A program made the position numbers and the translations under genes. A stretch of 64,000 nt of DNA, from positions 8,864 to 72,863 of the forward strand of contig CAYRHT010000005.1 in the NCBI GenBank assembly GCA_964424195.1, given 5' to 3'. This document shows, one piece after another, positions 6,381-50,528 of the stretch. The stretch is from an uncultured Gammaproteobacteria bacterium. Its GTDB lineage: Bacteria; Patescibacteriota; Patescibacteriia; UBA1558; S5-K13. Numbering within the stretch: the first letter of the stretch is position 1; each line of letters starts with the position of its first letter. The notes below the pieces were generated by a model. It was not told the DNA's origin and did not search any database. It worked only from the letters and a program-made list of their open reading frames with translations.

Positions 6381-6458
6381 CTTATTTAAATGTTATTAAT
6401 TATATTTTAAGTATAGCAAATTTAGACTTAAGTCTAAATGTGTTATAATACTTGCACT

Positions 6459-8432
6459 ATGCAAGAAATAGATTTTCAAAAAGAGCTCAATCAAGAGCAA
6501 TACAAAGTGGTGAGTGCGGGTGATGGCCCTCACTTAGTTTTGGCTGGAGCTGGTTCGGGAAAGACTAGAACTTTAGTCTATCGAGTAGCTTGGCTATTAT
6601 CTCAAGGAGTAAGTCCGGAGAAAATTCTTTTAGTTACTTTTACTAACAAAGCTGCTCGAGAAATGATGGACCGAGTTCGGTCATTATTAATGTTGCCCGA
6701 AGATGAAAAAATTAGTCTTTGGGGTGGAACATTTCATTCTCTGGCTCATCGCCTATTAAGAATTTATGGAAAACAAATTGGAATTGCTACAGACTTTGTT
6801 ATTTTAGATGCTGAAGATAGTAAAACCTTAATTAAAGAAATTTCTAAGGAATATTTTAAAAATGTAGAATTAAAACATAAGCCTTCAGTTAATTTATTAA
6901 GAGAGGCAATTAGTTTTGCAATTAATTCAGACATTTCTTTAAAAGAAAGTGTAGGTATTAAATTTCCAGAATGGAAATCATTGCTTGGTGCTTTTGAAAC
7001 TATCGACAAAGAATATGCTGAAAGAAAAAAGAAGAATAAGTTTTTAGACTTTGATGATTTATTATTCTATTGGAAAAAGCTAACTTTAAATCCAGATATC
7101 ATGAAAAAGTTTTCTGAGAAATGGCAATATGTTTTAGTTGATGAATATCAGGATACTAATTCTATTCAAGCTGAGATTGTATATAATTTAGCTCAGAAAC
7201 ATCAGAATATAATTGTAGTTGGTGATGACGCTCAGAGTATTTATTCTTTTCGAGCAGCGGATGTAAAAAATATATTAGAATTTCCAGATCTTTTTAAAAA
7301 ATGTCAGATTCATAAATTAGAAACCAATTATCGTTCTAGTTCAGAGATAGTTAGTTTGGCTAATAATGTTATTAAAGAAAATCAAAATCAGTTCTTTAAA
7401 AACCTCAGAGCTAGTAAAGGCGGCTTTATTAAGCCTGTTTTAGTAGCTTCTAAAAGTACCCGAGAAGAAGCTTATTTCGTAGCAGATAAGATTGAAGAAC
7501 TTATTGAAGATGGAATGCCACATAAAGAGATAGCTGTTTTATTCAGAGCAGCTAATCATTCTCAGTTATTAGAAATGGAATTGAATCGGAGAGGTATTAG
7601 TTATGAGATGCGAGGAGGATTTAGATTTTTTGAGAGAGCTCATATTAAAGATGTGATTGCCTATTTAAGAATTATTCATAACATCAAAGATGAAATTGCT
7701 TGGTCACGAGTCTTGAAACTTTATGAAGGAATTGGAATTGCTACAGTTAAGAAAATTTATGAGCAAGTTTCTCAGATGAGAGACTTGGAAGATTTATTAG
7801 CTTTGAATATAAAAATATCTGGAAAGGCTAAAGTTTCTTGGGATCAATTCTTTCAAGTACTTCAGATATTGGATAAGCACAAGAAAGATAGTCCAGAAAA
7901 ATTATTAAGATTGATAATTGATTTTTATACTCCTTATGTAATGGCCGAGTATACTGATTATCGACAAAGAAAAGATGATTTAAATCAATTAGCATTTTTT
8001 ACTATTAGTTATACTGAATTAGAATTATTCTTAGCAGAAGTTGCTCTCCAAGAAAGCTTTAGTTTGAAATCTAAGGAGGATAAAGTTCAGAAAGTTATTC
8101 TAAGCACAGTTCATCAAGCCAAAGGATTAGAATGGAATGCAGTTTTTGTTTTAAATTTGTCTAATCAAGGATTTCCACATCCTCGTTGTGTGGAACAACA
8201 TGAATATGAAGAAGAAAGAAGATTATTTTATGTAGCAATTACTCGAGCTAAAGAATATTTATTTCTTTCTTATCCAACTTCAATTTATAGGTATGGGTCT
8301 TATGAAAATTTAGAACCTTCAGATTTTATTAAGAATATTAACAAAGATTTATTAAATTATAATGAGCTTGCTCATCGAGTTCGAGAGTCATCAGGGAGTG
8401 GAGTACAATATATTGAATCTTCAGATTGGTAA
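6459..8432 (+). CDS. UvrD/PcrA/Rep-type superfamily-1 ATP-dependent DNA helicase (start may be 6438)
   Basis: LNQEQYKVV...HLVLAGAGSGKTRTLVYR (motif I/Walker A), VDEYQDTN (motif II), VGDDAQSIY, C-terminal VHQAKGLEW..LFYVAITRAK motifs. Confidence 0.85.
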   Translation: MQEIDFQKELNQEQYKVVSAGDGPHLVLAGAGSGKTRTLVYRVAWLLSQGVSPEKILLVTFTNKAAREMMDRVRSLLMLPEDEKISLWGGTFHSLAHRLLRIYGKQIGIATDFVILDAEDSKTLIKEISKEYFKNVELKHKPSVNLLREAISFAINSDISLKESVGIKFPEWKSLLGAFETIDKEYAERKKKNKFLDFDDLLFYWKKLTLNPDIMKKFSEKWQYVLVDEYQDTNSIQAEIVYNLAQKHQNIIVVGDDAQSIYSFRAADVKNILEFPDLFKKCQIHKLETNYRSSSEIVSLANNVIKENQNQFFKNLRASKGGFIKPVLVASKSTREEAYFVADKIEELIEDGMPHKEIAVLFRAANHSQLLEMELNRRGISYEMRGGFRFFERAHIKDVIAYLRIIHNIKDEIAWSRVLKLYEGIGIATVKKIYEQVSQMRDLEDLLALNIKISGKAKVSWDQFFQVLQILDKHKKDSPEKLLRLIIDFYTPYVMAEYTDYRQRKDDLNQLAFFTISYTELELFLAEVALQESFSLKSKEDKVQKVILSTVHQAKGLEWNAVFVLNLSNQGFPHPRCVEQHEYEEERRLFYVAITRAKEYLFLSYPTSIYRYGSYENLEPSDFIKNINKDLLNYNELAHRVRESSGSGVQYIESSDW

Positions 8433-8461
8433 AATTTTATTTTTAGGTTTATAATATAGAC

Positions 8462-9250
8462 ATGGTAAAAAAGGATACAATAGTTTTGGATCTGGAAACC
8501 AAGAAGACCTTTGACGAGGTTGGTGGTCAACACAATAAGCACTTATTAGGTGTTTCTTTTGTTGGAGTTTATTCTTATAACCAAAAAAAGTATTTAGGAT
8601 TTAAAGAAGATCAATTTGATGAACTTTTAGAGCTATTTAAAAACACAGAGTTGGTAATTGGTTTTAATAGTAAGTATTTTGATTTACCAGTTTTACAACC
8701 TTACTATGATAACTTTGATCTTTTAAAAATTCCACACTTAGACATTCTAGAAGAGATAACAAATAGTCTAGGACATCGTTTAAAATTAGAAAGCATTGCT
8801 CAAAGCACTTTAGGTTATGGAAAATCTGGCAGTGGCTTAGATGCTATTAAGTATTTTAGAGAGAATGATTGGGAGTCTTTAATAAAGTATTGTTTAGATG
8901 ATGTAAAGGTAACCATGGAAGTATATGAATATGGTTTAGCTCATGGACATATTCTTTATACTAATTATGGTAAAAAAGAACAAATTCCAATTTCCTGGGC
9001 AAAAAAAGAGGATATTAAAATTGAGGATTTAATTCAAGATGCTTTTAAAAAAGGAGAACAATTAGAAATAGATTATATAGATGATGAAGGTAATGTCTCC
9101 AAAAGAAAGATTGATATTAAGCGTATAGATGGAACAATGATTAAAGCTCATTGTCATTTACGAGATGCGATTCGAAAGTTTGATTTGTATAAGATCAAGA
9201 AAGCTAAGATAGTTGGTAAGATGGCTAATTTCCAAGGATTCTTATTCTAA
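8462..9250 (+). CDS. DEDDy-type 3'-5' exonuclease domain fused to a C-terminal WYL-like domain
   Basis: Exo I LDLET, Exo II FNSKYFDLPVL, Exo III YCLDDV (tyrosine variant); C-terminal ...KAHCHLRDAIRKFDLYKIKKAKI resembles the WYL-domain conserved core. Confidence 0.6.
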   Translation: MVKKDTIVLDLETKKTFDEVGGQHNKHLLGVSFVGVYSYNQKKYLGFKEDQFDELLELFKNTELVIGFNSKYFDLPVLQPYYDNFDLLKIPHLDILEEITNSLGHRLKLESIAQSTLGYGKSGSGLDAIKYFRENDWESLIKYCLDDVKVTMEVYEYGLAHGHILYTNYGKKEQIPISWAKKEDIKIEDLIQDAFKKGEQLEIDYIDDEGNVSKRKIDIKRIDGTMIKAHCHLRDAIRKFDLYKIKKAKIVGKMANFQGFLF

Positions 9251-23333: not shown

Positions 23334-26141
23334 ATGCCTTCAAAAAATATTGTCATTAAAGGTGCTAGAGTCCATAATTTACAGAATGTGGACTTAGAAC
23401 TTCCTAAGAATAAATTTACAGTAATTAGTGGGCTTTCTGGTTCAGGAAAGTCTTCTTTAGCTTTTGATACTCTTTATGCTGAAAGTCAGAGAAGATATAT
23501 GGAATCTCTTTCAGCTTATTCTAAACAATTCTTAGATTTAATGGATAAGCCTGATGTAGATAGTATTGAAGGTCTTCCCCCAGCTATATCTATTGGTCAG
23601 GGAAGTAATAATCGGAGCCCTAGATCAACAGTGGGAACAGTTACTGAAATTTATGATTATCTTAGATTATTATTTGCTAGAATTGGAAAAGTATATTGTC
23701 CAAAGTGTAATAATTTAATTGAAAAACAAGATTTAAAGAAAATTAATAGCAATGTCCAAAAGAAATATTTGAATAAAGAGATTATAATCTTAGCTCCAAT
23801 TACTAAGAGTCACAAAACTAGTAATGCTAGTGTTTTAAAAAAGATTAAGAAGTCTAGCTATGATTTAGTAAGAGTGGATAAAGATTTTTATACCATTGAT
23901 GAAGCTCTTAAGTTAAACTTTGATGGAAACAAGTCTCATCAAATAGATATTATAGTTGATAAATTAAAACCAAGTTCAGAAAAGAAAGCTAAGAACTCTT
24001 TAGCAGAAGCAATTGCCACAGCCATAGATTTATCTAATGGTTATCTTGTTGTTTACGATAATGTTTTAGCAGAAGAAAGTATTTTTAGTAAACAATTATA
24101 CTGCCCCAGCTGTGATGTTAGCTTTCCAGATATAGAGCCAAGAAACTTTTCATTTAATAGTCCTCATGGAGCTTGTCAGAAATGTGGTGGTTTAGGCATT
24201 AAGTTAAAACTTGATTCAGAATTAGTTATTCCTAATTCAAAACTTAGTTTAAATCAAGGAGCTATTAGGCTTTTGTTTAAGATTTCAGTAAATCAGAATA
24301 ATTATTACAAGATATTAGAAAAAGCAGTAGGTAGTTCTAAGATAGATATCAATATTCCAGTTAATAATCTTAAGAAAGAAGATTTAGATATAATTTTATA
24401 CGGTTCTAAAGAAAAAGATGCTTTTGAAGGTGTGATTCCTTTTTTAGAAAAGAAACACCAGGAAACAGATTCAGACTATGTAAGATCAGAGATTGAAAAA
24501 TGTATGAGAACCTATGAATGTCCTTCTTGTCATGGTAAAAGATTAAAAAAAGAGTCTTTAGCTGTAAAAATACTAGATAATAATATTAGTGATATTGGTT
24601 CTTTGACTATTGAAGTAGCTAAGAAGTTTTTTGAAGGTATTGCTAAACAAAAAAAAGACCATTTATTGAATAAAAAAGATTTTCAGATTGCAGAGAGAAT
24701 ACTTAAGGAAATTACTTTCAGATTAAATTCAATTAATGAGGTTGGTTTAAACTATTTAACGTTAGATAGATCAGCTGTTTCTTTGTCAGGTGGTGAAATG
24801 CAGAGAATTAGACTAGCTACTCAAATTAATTCTTCTTTATCAGGTGTTTTATATATTCTTGATGAACCTTCAATTGGTCTTCATCAAAAAGATAATTTTA
24901 GATTAATTAAAACTCTAAAAAATCTTCAAGATTTGGGTAACACCATTATTGTTATTGAACATGATCGGGATACTATCTTAGCTTCTGATTATTTAGTTGA
25001 TGTTGGTCCTGGTGCTGGAGAAAATGGTGGTAAAATTATTTCTGTTGGAACTCCAGAGCAAGTTAAAAAAGACAAGAACTCTATTACTGGTAAATATTTA
25101 TCAAATAAATTGAAAATTGAAGTTCCTAAGAAACATCACAAGGGAAATGGTAAATATTTAGAAATAATTGGAGCTAATGAGTTTAATTTAAAGAATATTG
25201 ATGTTAAAATACCTTTAGGGAAGTTAGTTTGTGTAACTGGAGTTTCTGGTTCTGGAAAATCTACTTTAATATTTGAAATACTAGGCAAAGCTTTATCAAA
25301 TAAATTAACTAGAGCAAAAGATCTTCCGGGAGAGCATCAAGAAATTAAAGGATTAAAGAATATTGATAAAGTAATTAATATTGATCAATCTCCAATTGGT
25401 AGAACTCCTCGTTCAAATCCAGCTACTTATACTGGAGTTTTCACCTACATTAGAGATTTATTTGCTAATTTACCAGAATCTAAAATTAGAGGTTATAAGT
25501 TAGGTAAATTTAGTTTTAATGTTCGAGGTGGAAGATGTGAAGAATGTCAGGGAAATGGTTTAGTTAAGATAGGTATGAATTTCTTACCAGATATGTATGT
25601 TGAATGTGAAGAGTGCCGAGGTAAGAGATATAATTCTGATATTTTAGAAATTCATTATAAAGATAAAGATATTGCCGAGGTCTTAGATATGACAGTTAGT
25701 GAAGCAATGATTTTCTTCAAGAATATTCCAAACATTTCTAATAAATTGAAAACTTTGAATAATGTTGGCCTAGGATATTTGAAATTAGGACAATCAGCAA
25801 CAACTTTGTCGGGTGGTGAAGCTCAGAGAGTTAAATTAGCCACAGAATTATCAAGAAAGGCTACTGGTAAAACTCTATACATTCTTGATGAGCCAACAAC
25901 AGGTTTACATTTTGATGATATTAACAAATTGATTGATGTTTTACAAAAACTAGTTGATAAAGGTAATAGTGTTTTAATTATTGAACATAACCTAGATGTT
26001 ATTAAATGTGCTGATTGGATTATAGATTTAGGACCAGGTGGTGGTGATAAAGGTGGTGAAATTGTTGCTCAAGGAACACCTAAAGAAGTTGTTAAAGTTA
26101 AAAAATCATATACTGGAAAATATTTGTCTGAATTAATATAA
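23334..26141 (+). CDS. uvrA: excinuclease ABC subunit A
   Basis: VIKGARVHNLQNVDLELP...TVISGLSGSGKSSLAFDTLYAE, two ABC modules (second Walker A GVSGSGKST), LSGGE signatures, zinc-finger cysteines. Confidence 0.95.
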   Translation: MPSKNIVIKGARVHNLQNVDLELPKNKFTVISGLSGSGKSSLAFDTLYAESQRRYMESLSAYSKQFLDLMDKPDVDSIEGLPPAISIGQGSNNRSPRSTVGTVTEIYDYLRLLFARIGKVYCPKCNNLIEKQDLKKINSNVQKKYLNKEIIILAPITKSHKTSNASVLKKIKKSSYDLVRVDKDFYTIDEALKLNFDGNKSHQIDIIVDKLKPSSEKKAKNSLAEAIATAIDLSNGYLVVYDNVLAEESIFSKQLYCPSCDVSFPDIEPRNFSFNSPHGACQKCGGLGIKLKLDSELVIPNSKLSLNQGAIRLLFKISVNQNNYYKILEKAVGSSKIDINIPVNNLKKEDLDIILYGSKEKDAFEGVIPFLEKKHQETDSDYVRSEIEKCMRTYECPSCHGKRLKKESLAVKILDNNISDIGSLTIEVAKKFFEGIAKQKKDHLLNKKDFQIAERILKEITFRLNSINEVGLNYLTLDRSAVSLSGGEMQRIRLATQINSSLSGVLYILDEPSIGLHQKDNFRLIKTLKNLQDLGNTIIVIEHDRDTILASDYLVDVGPGAGENGGKIISVGTPEQVKKDKNSITGKYLSNKLKIEVPKKHHKGNGKYLEIIGANEFNLKNIDVKIPLGKLVCVTGVSGSGKSTLIFEILGKALSNKLTRAKDLPGEHQEIKGLKNIDKVINIDQSPIGRTPRSNPATYTGVFTYIRDLFANLPESKIRGYKLGKFSFNVRGGRCEECQGNGLVKIGMNFLPDMYVECEECRGKRYNSDILEIHYKDKDIAEVLDMTVSEAMIFFKNIPNISNKLKTLNNVGLGYLKLGQSATTLSGGEAQRVKLATELSRKATGKTLYILDEPTTGLHFDDINKLIDVLQKLVDKGNSVLIIEHNLDVIKCADWIIDLGPGGGDKGGEIVAQGTPKEVVKVKKSYTGKYLSELI

Positions 26142-30201: not shown

Positions 30202-30276
30202 GCCCCGGTAGTTCAGTGGATAGAACAAGAGCCTTCTAAGCTTTAGACCTAAGTTCGATTCTTAGCCGGGGTACCA
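30202..30276 (+). tRNA. tRNA-Arg (anticodon TCT), CCA encoded
   Basis: cloverleaf folded by hand: acceptor gccccgg/ccggggt, D-arm gttc...gaac, anticodon loop cTTCTaa, T-arm ctaag-ttcgatt-cttag. Confidence 0.9.
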
Positions 30277-30277
30277 T

Positions 30278-30342
30278 GGTGAGTGTAGCTCAATGGTAGA
30301 GCCCTGGTTTGTGGTACCAGTGGTTGTGGGTTCAAATCCCGT
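30278..30342 (+). pseudogene. truncated copy of tRNA-His 5' portion (G-1 through T-arm); 3' acceptor strand missing
   Basis: ~62 nt nearly identical (1 mismatch) to 31026-31088, then diverges (gttaaccaaa instead of atcactcacc), so no acceptor pairing possible. Confidence 0.7.
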
Positions 30343-30402
30343 TAACCAAACACTTTCATATAGTAACGTTAAGACTTTGGAAAAGAATTAAATTATTAAG
30401 TT

Positions 30403-49667: not shown

Positions 49668-50528
49668 ATGCCAGAATTGCCAGAAGTACAAACTATCGTA
49701 GATGATTTGAATCAAAGTGCTCTTAATAAAAAGATTAAGAAGATCGATATTCTATTATCTAAGATTGTTAAAAGAGCTAATAAGAGGTTTATTGATGTCT
49801 TAAAGAATAATAGTTTTCAAAATATAAGTCGAAGAGGGAAATATATCATTTTTTCTTTAAAGAATAATCAATTTTTAGTTATTCATTTACGAATGACTGG
49901 TCAAATTATTTATAGACAGAAAGATAGTCTAATTGCTGGTGGACATAGTGATCAAAATAATAATTTTAACTTACCAAGCAAACAAACTCATGTAATTATC
50001 TATTTTAATGATGATTCACAGTTATTTTACAATGATCAGAGACAATTTGGTTATTTAGAAATTATTAACCGAGAAGAATTAAAAAAACTTGATAATAGAA
50101 TTGGTATTGAACCTTTATGTCCTCAGTTTACTCTAAAATATTTTAAAGATTTATTAAAAAATAGTAAGAGAAATGTTAAAGCTTTCTTATTAGATCAAAA
50201 ATATGTAGCAGGCTTAGGAAATATTTATGTAGATGAATCTTTGTTTCTAGCCTATGTTCTACCAACTCGTTCAGTAGATTCTCTAAATGAAAAAGAGACT
50301 AAGGATTTATATCAAGCTATTAAAAAAGTTTTAAAACAAGCTATTAAACATCGGGGAACTACTTTTAACAATTACAAAGATGCTCATGGTCGGAAAGGTA
50401 GTTTTATAAACAGATTAAAGGTTTATGGACAGGAGAATAAGGAGTGTTTTCGATGTCATCAGGGAGTTATTAAAAAGATTCGAGTAGCTGGACGAGGAAC
50501 TAGATATTGTCCAAAGTGTCAAAAATAA
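49668..50528 (+). CDS. mutM: formamidopyrimidine-DNA glycosylase
   Basis: N-terminal MPELPEV (catalytic Pro2/Glu3), H2TH region, C-terminal zinc finger CFRC...CPKC. Confidence 0.9.
   Translation: MPELPEVQTIVDDLNQSALNKKIKKIDILLSKIVKRANKRFIDVLKNNSFQNISRRGKYIIFSLKNNQFLVIHLRMTGQIIYRQKDSLIAGGHSDQNNNFNLPSKQTHVIIYFNDDSQLFYNDQRQFGYLEIINREELKKLDNRIGIEPLCPQFTLKYFKDLLKNSKRNVKAFLLDQKYVAGLGNIYVDESLFLAYVLPTRSVDSLNEKETKDLYQAIKKVLKQAIKHRGTTFNNYKDAHGRKGSFINRLKVYGQENKECFRCHQGVIKKIRVAGRGTRYCPKCQK

Follow-up and report, generated by a model that had tools for sequence, protein, structure and literature searches.

What might a 3′-5′ exonuclease do when it carries a WYL domain and is encoded beside a PcrA/UvrD-like helicase in one of the Patescibacteria (also called CPR, for candidate phyla radiation), a group with tiny genomes and a poorly understood toolkit for DNA replication and repair? 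The question is raised by two genes in a 64,000-nucleotide (nt) stretch of contig CAYRHT010000005.1 (assembly GCA_964424195.1), referred to here as the window. The second gene encodes a protein of 262 amino acids (aa) in which the exonuclease and WYL domains are followed by a short C-terminal motif of the kind that binds the β sliding clamp. We lean modestly towards reading this protein as a housekeeping 3′-5′ DNA exonuclease that is recruited by the clamp, with the WYL domain holding single-stranded DNA (ssDNA), and that probably trims strands unwound by the helicase.

Public records call such proteins "ribonuclease H-like" or "WYL domain-containing", and the WYL-exonuclease fusion is already among the WYL architectures catalogued in 2014 (PMC4012209). 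The locus is not a new category of system, and the function proposed here is our inference. We found no paper, in the literature searched, on the function of the exonuclease-WYL (exo-WYL) family, its clamp-type tail or its pairing with PcrA/UvrD, nor one on the DnaQ status of Patescibacteria. What appears to be new, judging from the sequences, is an exonuclease of the MrfB/YprB type that has been re-equipped with a WYL domain and a predicted clamp tether. It bears mainly on how Patescibacteria replicate and repair their DNA, and on WYL domains attached to enzymes.

The exonuclease, its WYL domain and its tail

The features on which the argument depends are as follows.

6459..8432, + strand: PcrA/UvrD-type superfamily 1A (SF1A) DNA helicase, 657 aa (Pfam, NCBIfam, alignment to PcrA 1pjr)
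8462..9250, + strand: complete open reading frame (ORF), 262 aa and stop, encoding a DEDDy exonuclease, a WYL domain and a clamp-binding-type tail
8462..8995, + strand: 3′-5′ exonuclease domain of RNase H-like fold, aa 1-178 (Pfam, alignment, AlphaFold2 (AF2), Foldseek)
9017..9220, + strand: WYL domain, aa ~186-253, a five-strand Sm-like barrel preceded by one helix (profiles, AF2, Foldseek)
9233..9247, + strand: pentapeptide Q258-G-F-L261-F262, predicted β-sliding-clamp-binding motif (Q-x-x-L-[LFI])

A preliminary description of this DNA had placed a UvrD-like helicase here, followed 29 bp later by a DEDDy exonuclease with the motif YCLDDV, and both statements hold. The gap runs from the helicase stop codon (8432) to the exonuclease ATG (8462). 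The three exonuclease motifs are D10-L-E12 (Exo I; D10/E12 at nt 8489-8497), N69..D74 (Exo II; D74 at nt 8681-8683) and Y143-C-L-D-D147 (Exo III; nt 8888-8902), and D10, E12, D74, Y143 and D147 are invariant in an alignment of 60 homologues that are 55-91% identical. Pfam matches the protein with RNase_H_2 (PF13482, 1.2e-10) and DNA_pol_B_exo2 (6e-06). The AF2 model built from the 60-sequence alignment (predicted local distance difference test (pLDDT) 92.4, predicted TM-score 0.88) has an α/β exonuclease core, a β-hairpin, one helix and five strands; the exonuclease domain ends with the hairpin (aa 163-176), which is followed by a conserved W179. In Foldseek searches against the PDB, the N-terminal part of the model matched the proofreading domains of the T7, RB69, KOD and Pol epsilon polymerases with a probability of 1.00. 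The family profile weakly matched the E. coli Pol II exonuclease, and matches in BFVD were to viral polymerase exonucleases and YprB-like proteins. The protein shares with the proofreading domains of family A and B polymerases (T7; E. coli Pol II, RB69, KOD, Pol epsilon) the DEDDy site, the fold and the DNA_pol_B_exo2 match, but it has no polymerase domain, being a free-standing 20-kDa core with a WYL domain. From sequence and model, it is a DEDDy 3′-5′ exonuclease, in predicted activity, with a MrfB/YprB-like core of the polymerase-proofreading type.

The C-terminal region was suggested in the same description to have a WYL core, and a profile search of this region matched WYL and not an ordinary exonuclease extension. 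The signature AHCHLRDAIRKFDLYKI lies at residues 229-245, within the C-terminal ~80 aa. The Pfam WYL model scores 21.5 bits on the window protein, just under the cutoff of 21.8 (E 2.4e-4), and the WYL models of PADLOC score 36 bits (E 1e-9). The family profile matches the WYL domain of PafBC (6sj9) at 3e-4. PF13280 is precomputed in most homologues, and one relative (L034) scores 33.8 bits. In the AF2 model a helix (187-196) precedes strands at 199-206, 212-223, 226-231, 236-241 and 245-253, and Foldseek matches this part of the model to the WYL domains of PafBC, CapW and BrxR. Profiles and model together confirm a genuine WYL domain and not a chance match. We also considered whether the barrel might be the displaced Tudor-like C-terminal domain of PcrA, and rejected this; the barrel matches WYL profiles and structures specifically.

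All WYL ligands solved in the literature consulted are ssDNA (PMC11662680, PMC11804915, PMC9186387), and nothing at this locus requires that the ligand sensing first suggested for the domain be of small molecules. When aligned to CapW (HVRAYCHKRKAFRDF vs MIKAHCHLRDAIRKF), R238 lies opposite CapW R184/Ec R200, a residue that touches ssDNA; mutating it abolishes the response or signalling (PMC11662680). R238 is R or K in 43/52 diverse exo-WYL members. Across these 52 proteins Y205, R215, D218, A229, C231, H232, R234, R238, F240 and R/K244 are kept, and I245, next to K244, is also listed among the conserved residues; R215, R234 and K/R244 are largely conserved beside R238. With the WYL domains of PafBC, DriD, CapW/BrxR and Pif1 the window protein shares the Sm-like barrel, the A-x-C-H...R-x-F...R-I core and the arginine equivalent to the CapW contact. 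It differs from the WYL ssDNA sensors in having neither a helix-turn-helix nor a WCX domain, and in that its WYL domain is fused to a nuclease and not to a transcription factor. From homology and this conserved arginine, the WYL domain would be expected to bind ssDNA. Situated between the core and the tail, the barrel would bind the single strand entering or leaving the active site, and would hold the substrate or gate the ssDNA, as in Pif1, DriD, PafBC and CapW. Its insertion offers a simple enzyme system for asking what a WYL domain does on a catalytic domain.

The preliminary description did not include the conserved C-terminal motif, which is the most constant feature of the family after the active site. 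Q258 and L261 are invariant in the 60-homologue alignment, within an otherwise variable tail in which pLDDT drops from 76 to 42. We collected 71 related loci from species-representative genomes, and the pattern Qxx[LMF][LFIVM]$ ends 63 of their 67 complete family members, compared with 1/708 of the proteins encoded nearby. The motif is at the extreme C-terminus in proteins with the WYL domain (260 aa; QNTLL, QKGLF, QGFLF) and in proteins of 194 aa that lack it (mostly QMSLI or QMSLL), and the linker residues vary. The tail is missing from relatives L066:3604-6570, P0198, P0219, P0234, P0236, P0240, P0241, P0243 and P0260, and helicase-fused relatives terminate straight after the hairpin. The classical bacterial β-clamp-binding form is QL[SD]LF, and E. 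coli Pol II ends in the clamp motif QLGLF. QMSLL, seen in the exonuclease-only members, is also the clamp motif of E. coli MutS. QxxLF is also the form of the motif given in PMC12926913. The pentapeptide fits the β-clamp-binding consensus, and the family can be read as clamp-tethered. A disordered Q-x-x-L-F tail would dock the exonuclease on the clamp and thereby bring it to the places where clamps are found, namely 3′ ends, nicks and gaps.

Relatives, neighbours and the choice of substrate

A database search returned 564 homologues, the best 120 of which are all ~260 aa and 55-91% identical to the window protein. These 120 are labelled Parcubacteria, Komeilibacteria, Nomurabacteria or Patescibacteria, and most have precomputed PF13482 and PF13280. 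Another family member (L033) bears the label Saccharibacteria. An exhaustive profile search extended the family to 3,279 cluster representatives at E ≤ 1e-3 (346 at E ≤ 1e-30). Three architectures were found: exonuclease plus WYL (~260 aa), exonuclease only (~190 aa) and proteins of 920-1,176 aa with a C-terminal exonuclease. Genomes of the Microgenomates and Pacebacteria types are the source of the WYL-less proteins of 194 aa. Every long protein examined is a MrfA-type helicase (DEAD, Helicase_C, WHD_HRQ1, MZB) fused to the exonuclease, and such C-terminal domains of MrfA-type repair helicases are the closest relatives of the exonuclease domain outside Patescibacteria. In a rough neighbour-joining tree the tail-less, MrfA-associated branch is apart from the Patescibacteria branch. 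Several metagenome-assembled genomes with the Patescibacteria-type gene and synteny (L002, L007-L009, L016-L020, L040-L042 and others) are titled "uncultured Gammaproteobacteria" or "Pseudomonadales". These titles are probably wrong taxonomic labels of the assemblies.

The resemblance to MrfA/MrfB (YprA/YprB), the mitomycin-repair pair of B. subtilis, had already been noted, and it goes beyond analogy to homology. The window exonuclease belongs to the Pfam family of YprB (PF13482), its helicase and exonuclease genes stand side by side as in B. subtilis, and its closest relatives outside Patescibacteria are the MrfA fusions. MrfB is a metal-dependent 3′-5′ DNA exonuclease with a fold closest to PolB proofreading domains, as in the window model (PMC11194089). 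The domain composition is different, as was also said. MrfB is DEDDh, with a long N-terminal extension and a C-terminal TPR domain (PMC11194089), whereas the window protein is DEDDy and has no TPR domain but a WYL domain and a clamp-type tail. MrfA is a superfamily 2 (SF2) helicase with MZB/DUF1998, whereas the window helicase is of the superfamily 1 (SF1) PcrA/UvrD type; domains of the MrfA type were seen only in the fused relatives outside Patescibacteria. We looked for a direct sequence or fold link to the MrfB structure 8UN9, and it was neither retrieved by the family profile nor among the top 50 Foldseek matches. The window pair would connect the MrfB/YprB exonuclease family with a second class of helicase and, by prediction, with the replication clamp.

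The polymerase-like fold raises a second explanation, in which the protein is a proofreader acting in trans for the replicative polymerase or Pol I, replaces Pol III epsilon (DnaQ), and is next to a helicase only incidentally. Polymerase proofreading domains are the protein's nearest matches in fold and profile, its C-terminal clamp motif is found family-wide, even in the minimal 194-aa form, and it is present in a single copy per genome in several lineages of Patescibacteria (one copy per assembly in the 71 assemblies). Non-canonical proofreaders are also expected where PHP and DnaQ are missing (PMC12926913). The comparison with epsilon extends to the tail, since epsilon is itself a clamp-contacting 3′-5′ exonuclease (PMC3664792) and, like MutS, MutL and Pol IV, has a disordered segment containing a short Q-x-x-L-[FL] peptide, which in the window protein is predicted to dock on the clamp in the same way. 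Epsilon, however, is a DEDDh enzyme whose motif is internal and which binds the PHP domain of the alpha subunit, and we saw no such interaction module in the window exonuclease, for which clamp binding is itself a prediction. No polymerase gene neighbours the exonuclease in any locus surveyed, and the proteins most closely related to it outside the phylum are joined to repair helicases and not to polymerases. We consider a dedicated replicative proofreader unlikely. A single-copy exonuclease with a predicted clamp tail, widespread in several lineages of Patescibacteria, is a candidate for a missing 3′-5′ editing or excision activity.

Gene neighbourhoods differ among the lineages. In all 25 loci at ≥55% identity (that is, at least 55%) a PcrA/UvrD-like helicase is encoded upstream on the same strand. 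It is directly adjacent to the exonuclease in 19 of them, with gaps of -11 to 139 nt, and the typical layout is YchF(-) | helicase, exonuclease | FolD(-). In Kerfeldbacteria-type loci (L029, L031, L032, L035) a PD-(D/E)XK nuclease (Cas4/AddB-like) is directly upstream and a divergent LexA just downstream, which is an independent DNA-damage context. The 35 exonuclease-only loci have the gene order PNPase, DeoC, YGGT, SOD, [exo], NUDIX, SufC, NUDIX, SufBD. NUDIX genes, which match MutT weakly, adjoin the exonuclease in three lineages (L021, L022, L023, L025, L026 and L036, c20; L040-L069, c5 and c10). The neighbours in the window are CorA, BipA, a glycosyl hydrolase, an aldolase and PFK, and those in relatives include YchF, FolD and NUDIX; the gene context is housekeeping. 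A role in repair is supported because the associations recur independently: PcrA/UvrD upstream, PD-(D/E)XK with LexA, and the MrfA-type fusions.

These contexts bear on the substrate. DEDDy enzymes include RNase D and NrnC (PMC11194089), the fusion was called a 3′-5′ exoRNase by Makarova et al. 2014 (PMC4012209), and PNPase is three or four genes upstream in the exonuclease-only lineage. The protein could then be an RNase D/NrnC-like 3′-5′ exoribonuclease, with a WYL domain that binds single-stranded RNA, in RNA turnover or maturation. However, no RNase D/T or Orn family model matched the 262-aa protein in searches of Pfam and NCBIfam, and its structural neighbours are DNA polymerases. The clamp-type tail, the fusions to MrfA helicases and the PcrA/UvrD, PD-(D/E)XK and LexA neighbours also point to DNA, and an RNA exonuclease seems to us improbable. 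We infer that DNA is the substrate because the polymerase-proofreading-like fold, the clamp motif and the three independent DNA-repair associations converge on it, each of them indirectly.

The helicase and the case for a pair

The helicase ORF is intact and spans 6438/6459..8432 on the + strand, the stop codon ending at 8432. We prefer ATG 6459 over ATG 6438 because homologues align from residue 1 of its product and because a TGnTATAAT sequence (6441-6449) overlaps ATG 6438. Pfam identifies UvrD-helicase (1.9e-78) and UvrD_C (1.6e-62), and among NCBIfam models pcrA scores best, with 484 bits against an equivalog cutoff of 911. The closest solved structure is PcrA 1pjr (8.9e-98), with residues 9-633 of the helicase aligned to residues 11-647 of 724. 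The 1A/1B/2A/2B domain set is present by the Pfam matches and this alignment, and the SF1 motifs are complete (GAGSGKT, DEYQD, VGDDAQSIY, TVHQAKGLEW, YVAITRAK). The ~75-aa C-terminal (Tudor-like) domain of PcrA/UvrD is judged missing because the alignment stops at residue 633, leaving 24 residues past the core compared with 77 in PcrA. The C-terminus is instead a short acidic tail (window 8358-8432, ..GVQYIESSDW$), a shortened version common to the window and L001. In other relatives (L002-L024, L036) the tail is conserved and acidic, and its tip is hydrophobic; one sub-clade has ..SFLPSIDRL$ and the rest have ..DGFLPD[VI]xxW$. It looks like a candidate short linear interaction motif.

A UvrD-like helicase beside a nuclease with a WYL sensor could also be taken for an anti-phage defence system, resembling Gabija (GajB) or CRISPR- or DRT-associated WYL proteins. 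PADLOC models of CRISPR-associated and DRT-associated WYL proteins match the WYL part, GajB models match the helicase at 301 bits, and WYL domains are enriched in defence loci (PMC4012209). The helicase nonetheless scores higher against PcrA (484 bits) than against GajB. Neither the window nor the relatives' loci have a GajA/OLD-type partner, CRISPR, DRT, CBASS, BREX or other defence gene nearby, and defence effectors are not known to carry clamp motifs. The gene is instead held in stable housekeeping synteny at one copy per genome over 55-91% identity, and we found no relatives of the exonuclease on viral contigs. We regard defence as very improbable, and reject it because of the gene context, the single copy and the lack of relatives on viral contigs.

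Returning to the clamp-recruited repair exonuclease, the helicase in the clade of the window would most likely supply the unwound 3′-ended strand, and this is the weakest step in the scheme. If the two proteins do cooperate, they would form an excision or resection pair, functionally parallel to MrfA/MrfB or to UvrD with ExoI/ExoX. In E. coli mismatch repair, an SF1A 3′-5′ helicase and 3′-5′ ssDNA exonucleases remove the displaced strand. The window likewise encodes an SF1A 3′-5′ helicase, and also UvrA (23334-26141, +) and Fpg/MutM (49668-50528, +), so the organism has functions of nucleotide- and base-excision repair that the helicase could join. Unlike the window exonuclease, ExoI/ExoX are DEDDh and unrelated at the family level, and unlike UvrD the window helicase has no C-terminal domain.

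Several observations weigh against this reading. The first concern the pairing, which had been described as operon-like and which a survey of the 71 loci bears out for close relatives alone. Helicase adjacency is found in 0/46 of the more distant family members, and the 11 exo-WYL loci among them lack any helicase within 6 kb. The pairing is thus clade-specific (25/25 close relatives vs 0/46), and it is no better conserved than the flanking YchF/FolD synteny. Even among close relatives, six loci have one gene between the helicase and the exonuclease (NUDIX in three), and in the window the exonuclease has a promoter-like element of its own that stops 6 nt before its ATG. In the WYL domain, the two arginines that flank the CapW WYL strand (RWHVR) are not conserved, and K228, the equivalent of CapW R168, is E in 20/52 members. 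The literal W-Y-L tripeptide is also absent (T225-M226-I227 in the window, N-K-I in the family consensus); variant tripeptides are known, e.g., WHV in CapW (PMC11662680). The clamp-type motif is only five residues long, and among the 50%-identity representatives there are exo-WYL lineages with other endings, e.g., ..Y.IP.DF... Finally, the listing of the fusion as a "3′-5′ exoRNase" leaves room for an RNA substrate (PMC4012209).

A broader version, which we think rather unlikely, would take in the family as a whole. A free-standing, clamp-docked DEDDy exonuclease would be a general 3′-end editor across Patescibacteria, in trans proofreading and/or in resection for mismatch or excision repair, and one large lineage would have acquired a WYL domain that makes the activity dependent on, or processive along, ssDNA from the neighbouring PcrA/UvrD helicase that lacks its C-terminal domain. 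Such a minimal repair machine of clamp, helicase and exonuclease would differ from both MrfAB and the UvrD/ExoI scheme of E. coli.

Transcription and other features of the window

Two promoter-like elements are associated with the pair.

6421..6449, + strand: promoter-like element upstream of the helicase, TTTAGA, 17 nt, TG-extended TATAAT (10/12 consensus matches)
8426..8455, + strand: promoter-like element before the exonuclease, TTGGTA, 18 nt, TATAAT, spanning the helicase gene end and the 29-bp spacer

The first has the helicase ATG 10 nt downstream, with no Shine-Dalgarno sequence, and as a consensus match in AT-rich DNA it is only suggestive. At ~29% GC, the window has frequent promoter-like matches (35 found vs 20 expected). 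In the window, and likewise in many relatives, the exonuclease ATG has a TGTTATAAT-type box 6-25 nt upstream of it; L004, L005, L006, L008, L009, L012, L015, L022, L024 and others have the box in the same place. There is no terminator between the two genes and no Shine-Dalgarno sequence ahead of the exonuclease ATG. Co-transcription is possible from the sequence; a co-transcribed operon as a firm claim is not sustained, with a promoter-like extended -10 element preceding the exonuclease ATG.

Across the window, which is coding mostly on the + strand, Shine-Dalgarno sequences are rare (GGAGG in only a handful of genes), and many genes have a TGTTATAAT-type extended -10 within ~10-25 nt of the ATG (6441-6449, 8450-8455, upstream of 559). 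From this, the organism's 5′ leaders would seem to be very short or missing.

Other features were found elsewhere in the window. A LOOT RNA (Rfam RF03000, 70 bits; 35446-35560, +) is intergenic and upstream of the gene for a staphylococcal-nuclease-like protein (35841-36950). The genes for argininosuccinate synthase (41937-43178) and lyase (43187-44368) directly follow a T-box leader (98 bits; 41663-41882, +), and arginine deiminase (40350-41549) and ArgRS (44464-46323) are near these genes. tRNA-Arg(TCT) abuts tRNA-His(GTG) with no spacer (30202-30349, +), and a second tRNA-His(GTG) is ~670 nt downstream (31016-31090, +). Between the tRNA cluster and the arginine genes there may be an integrated element, marked by a large serine recombinase with Resolvase and Recombinase domains (38499-40088, +).

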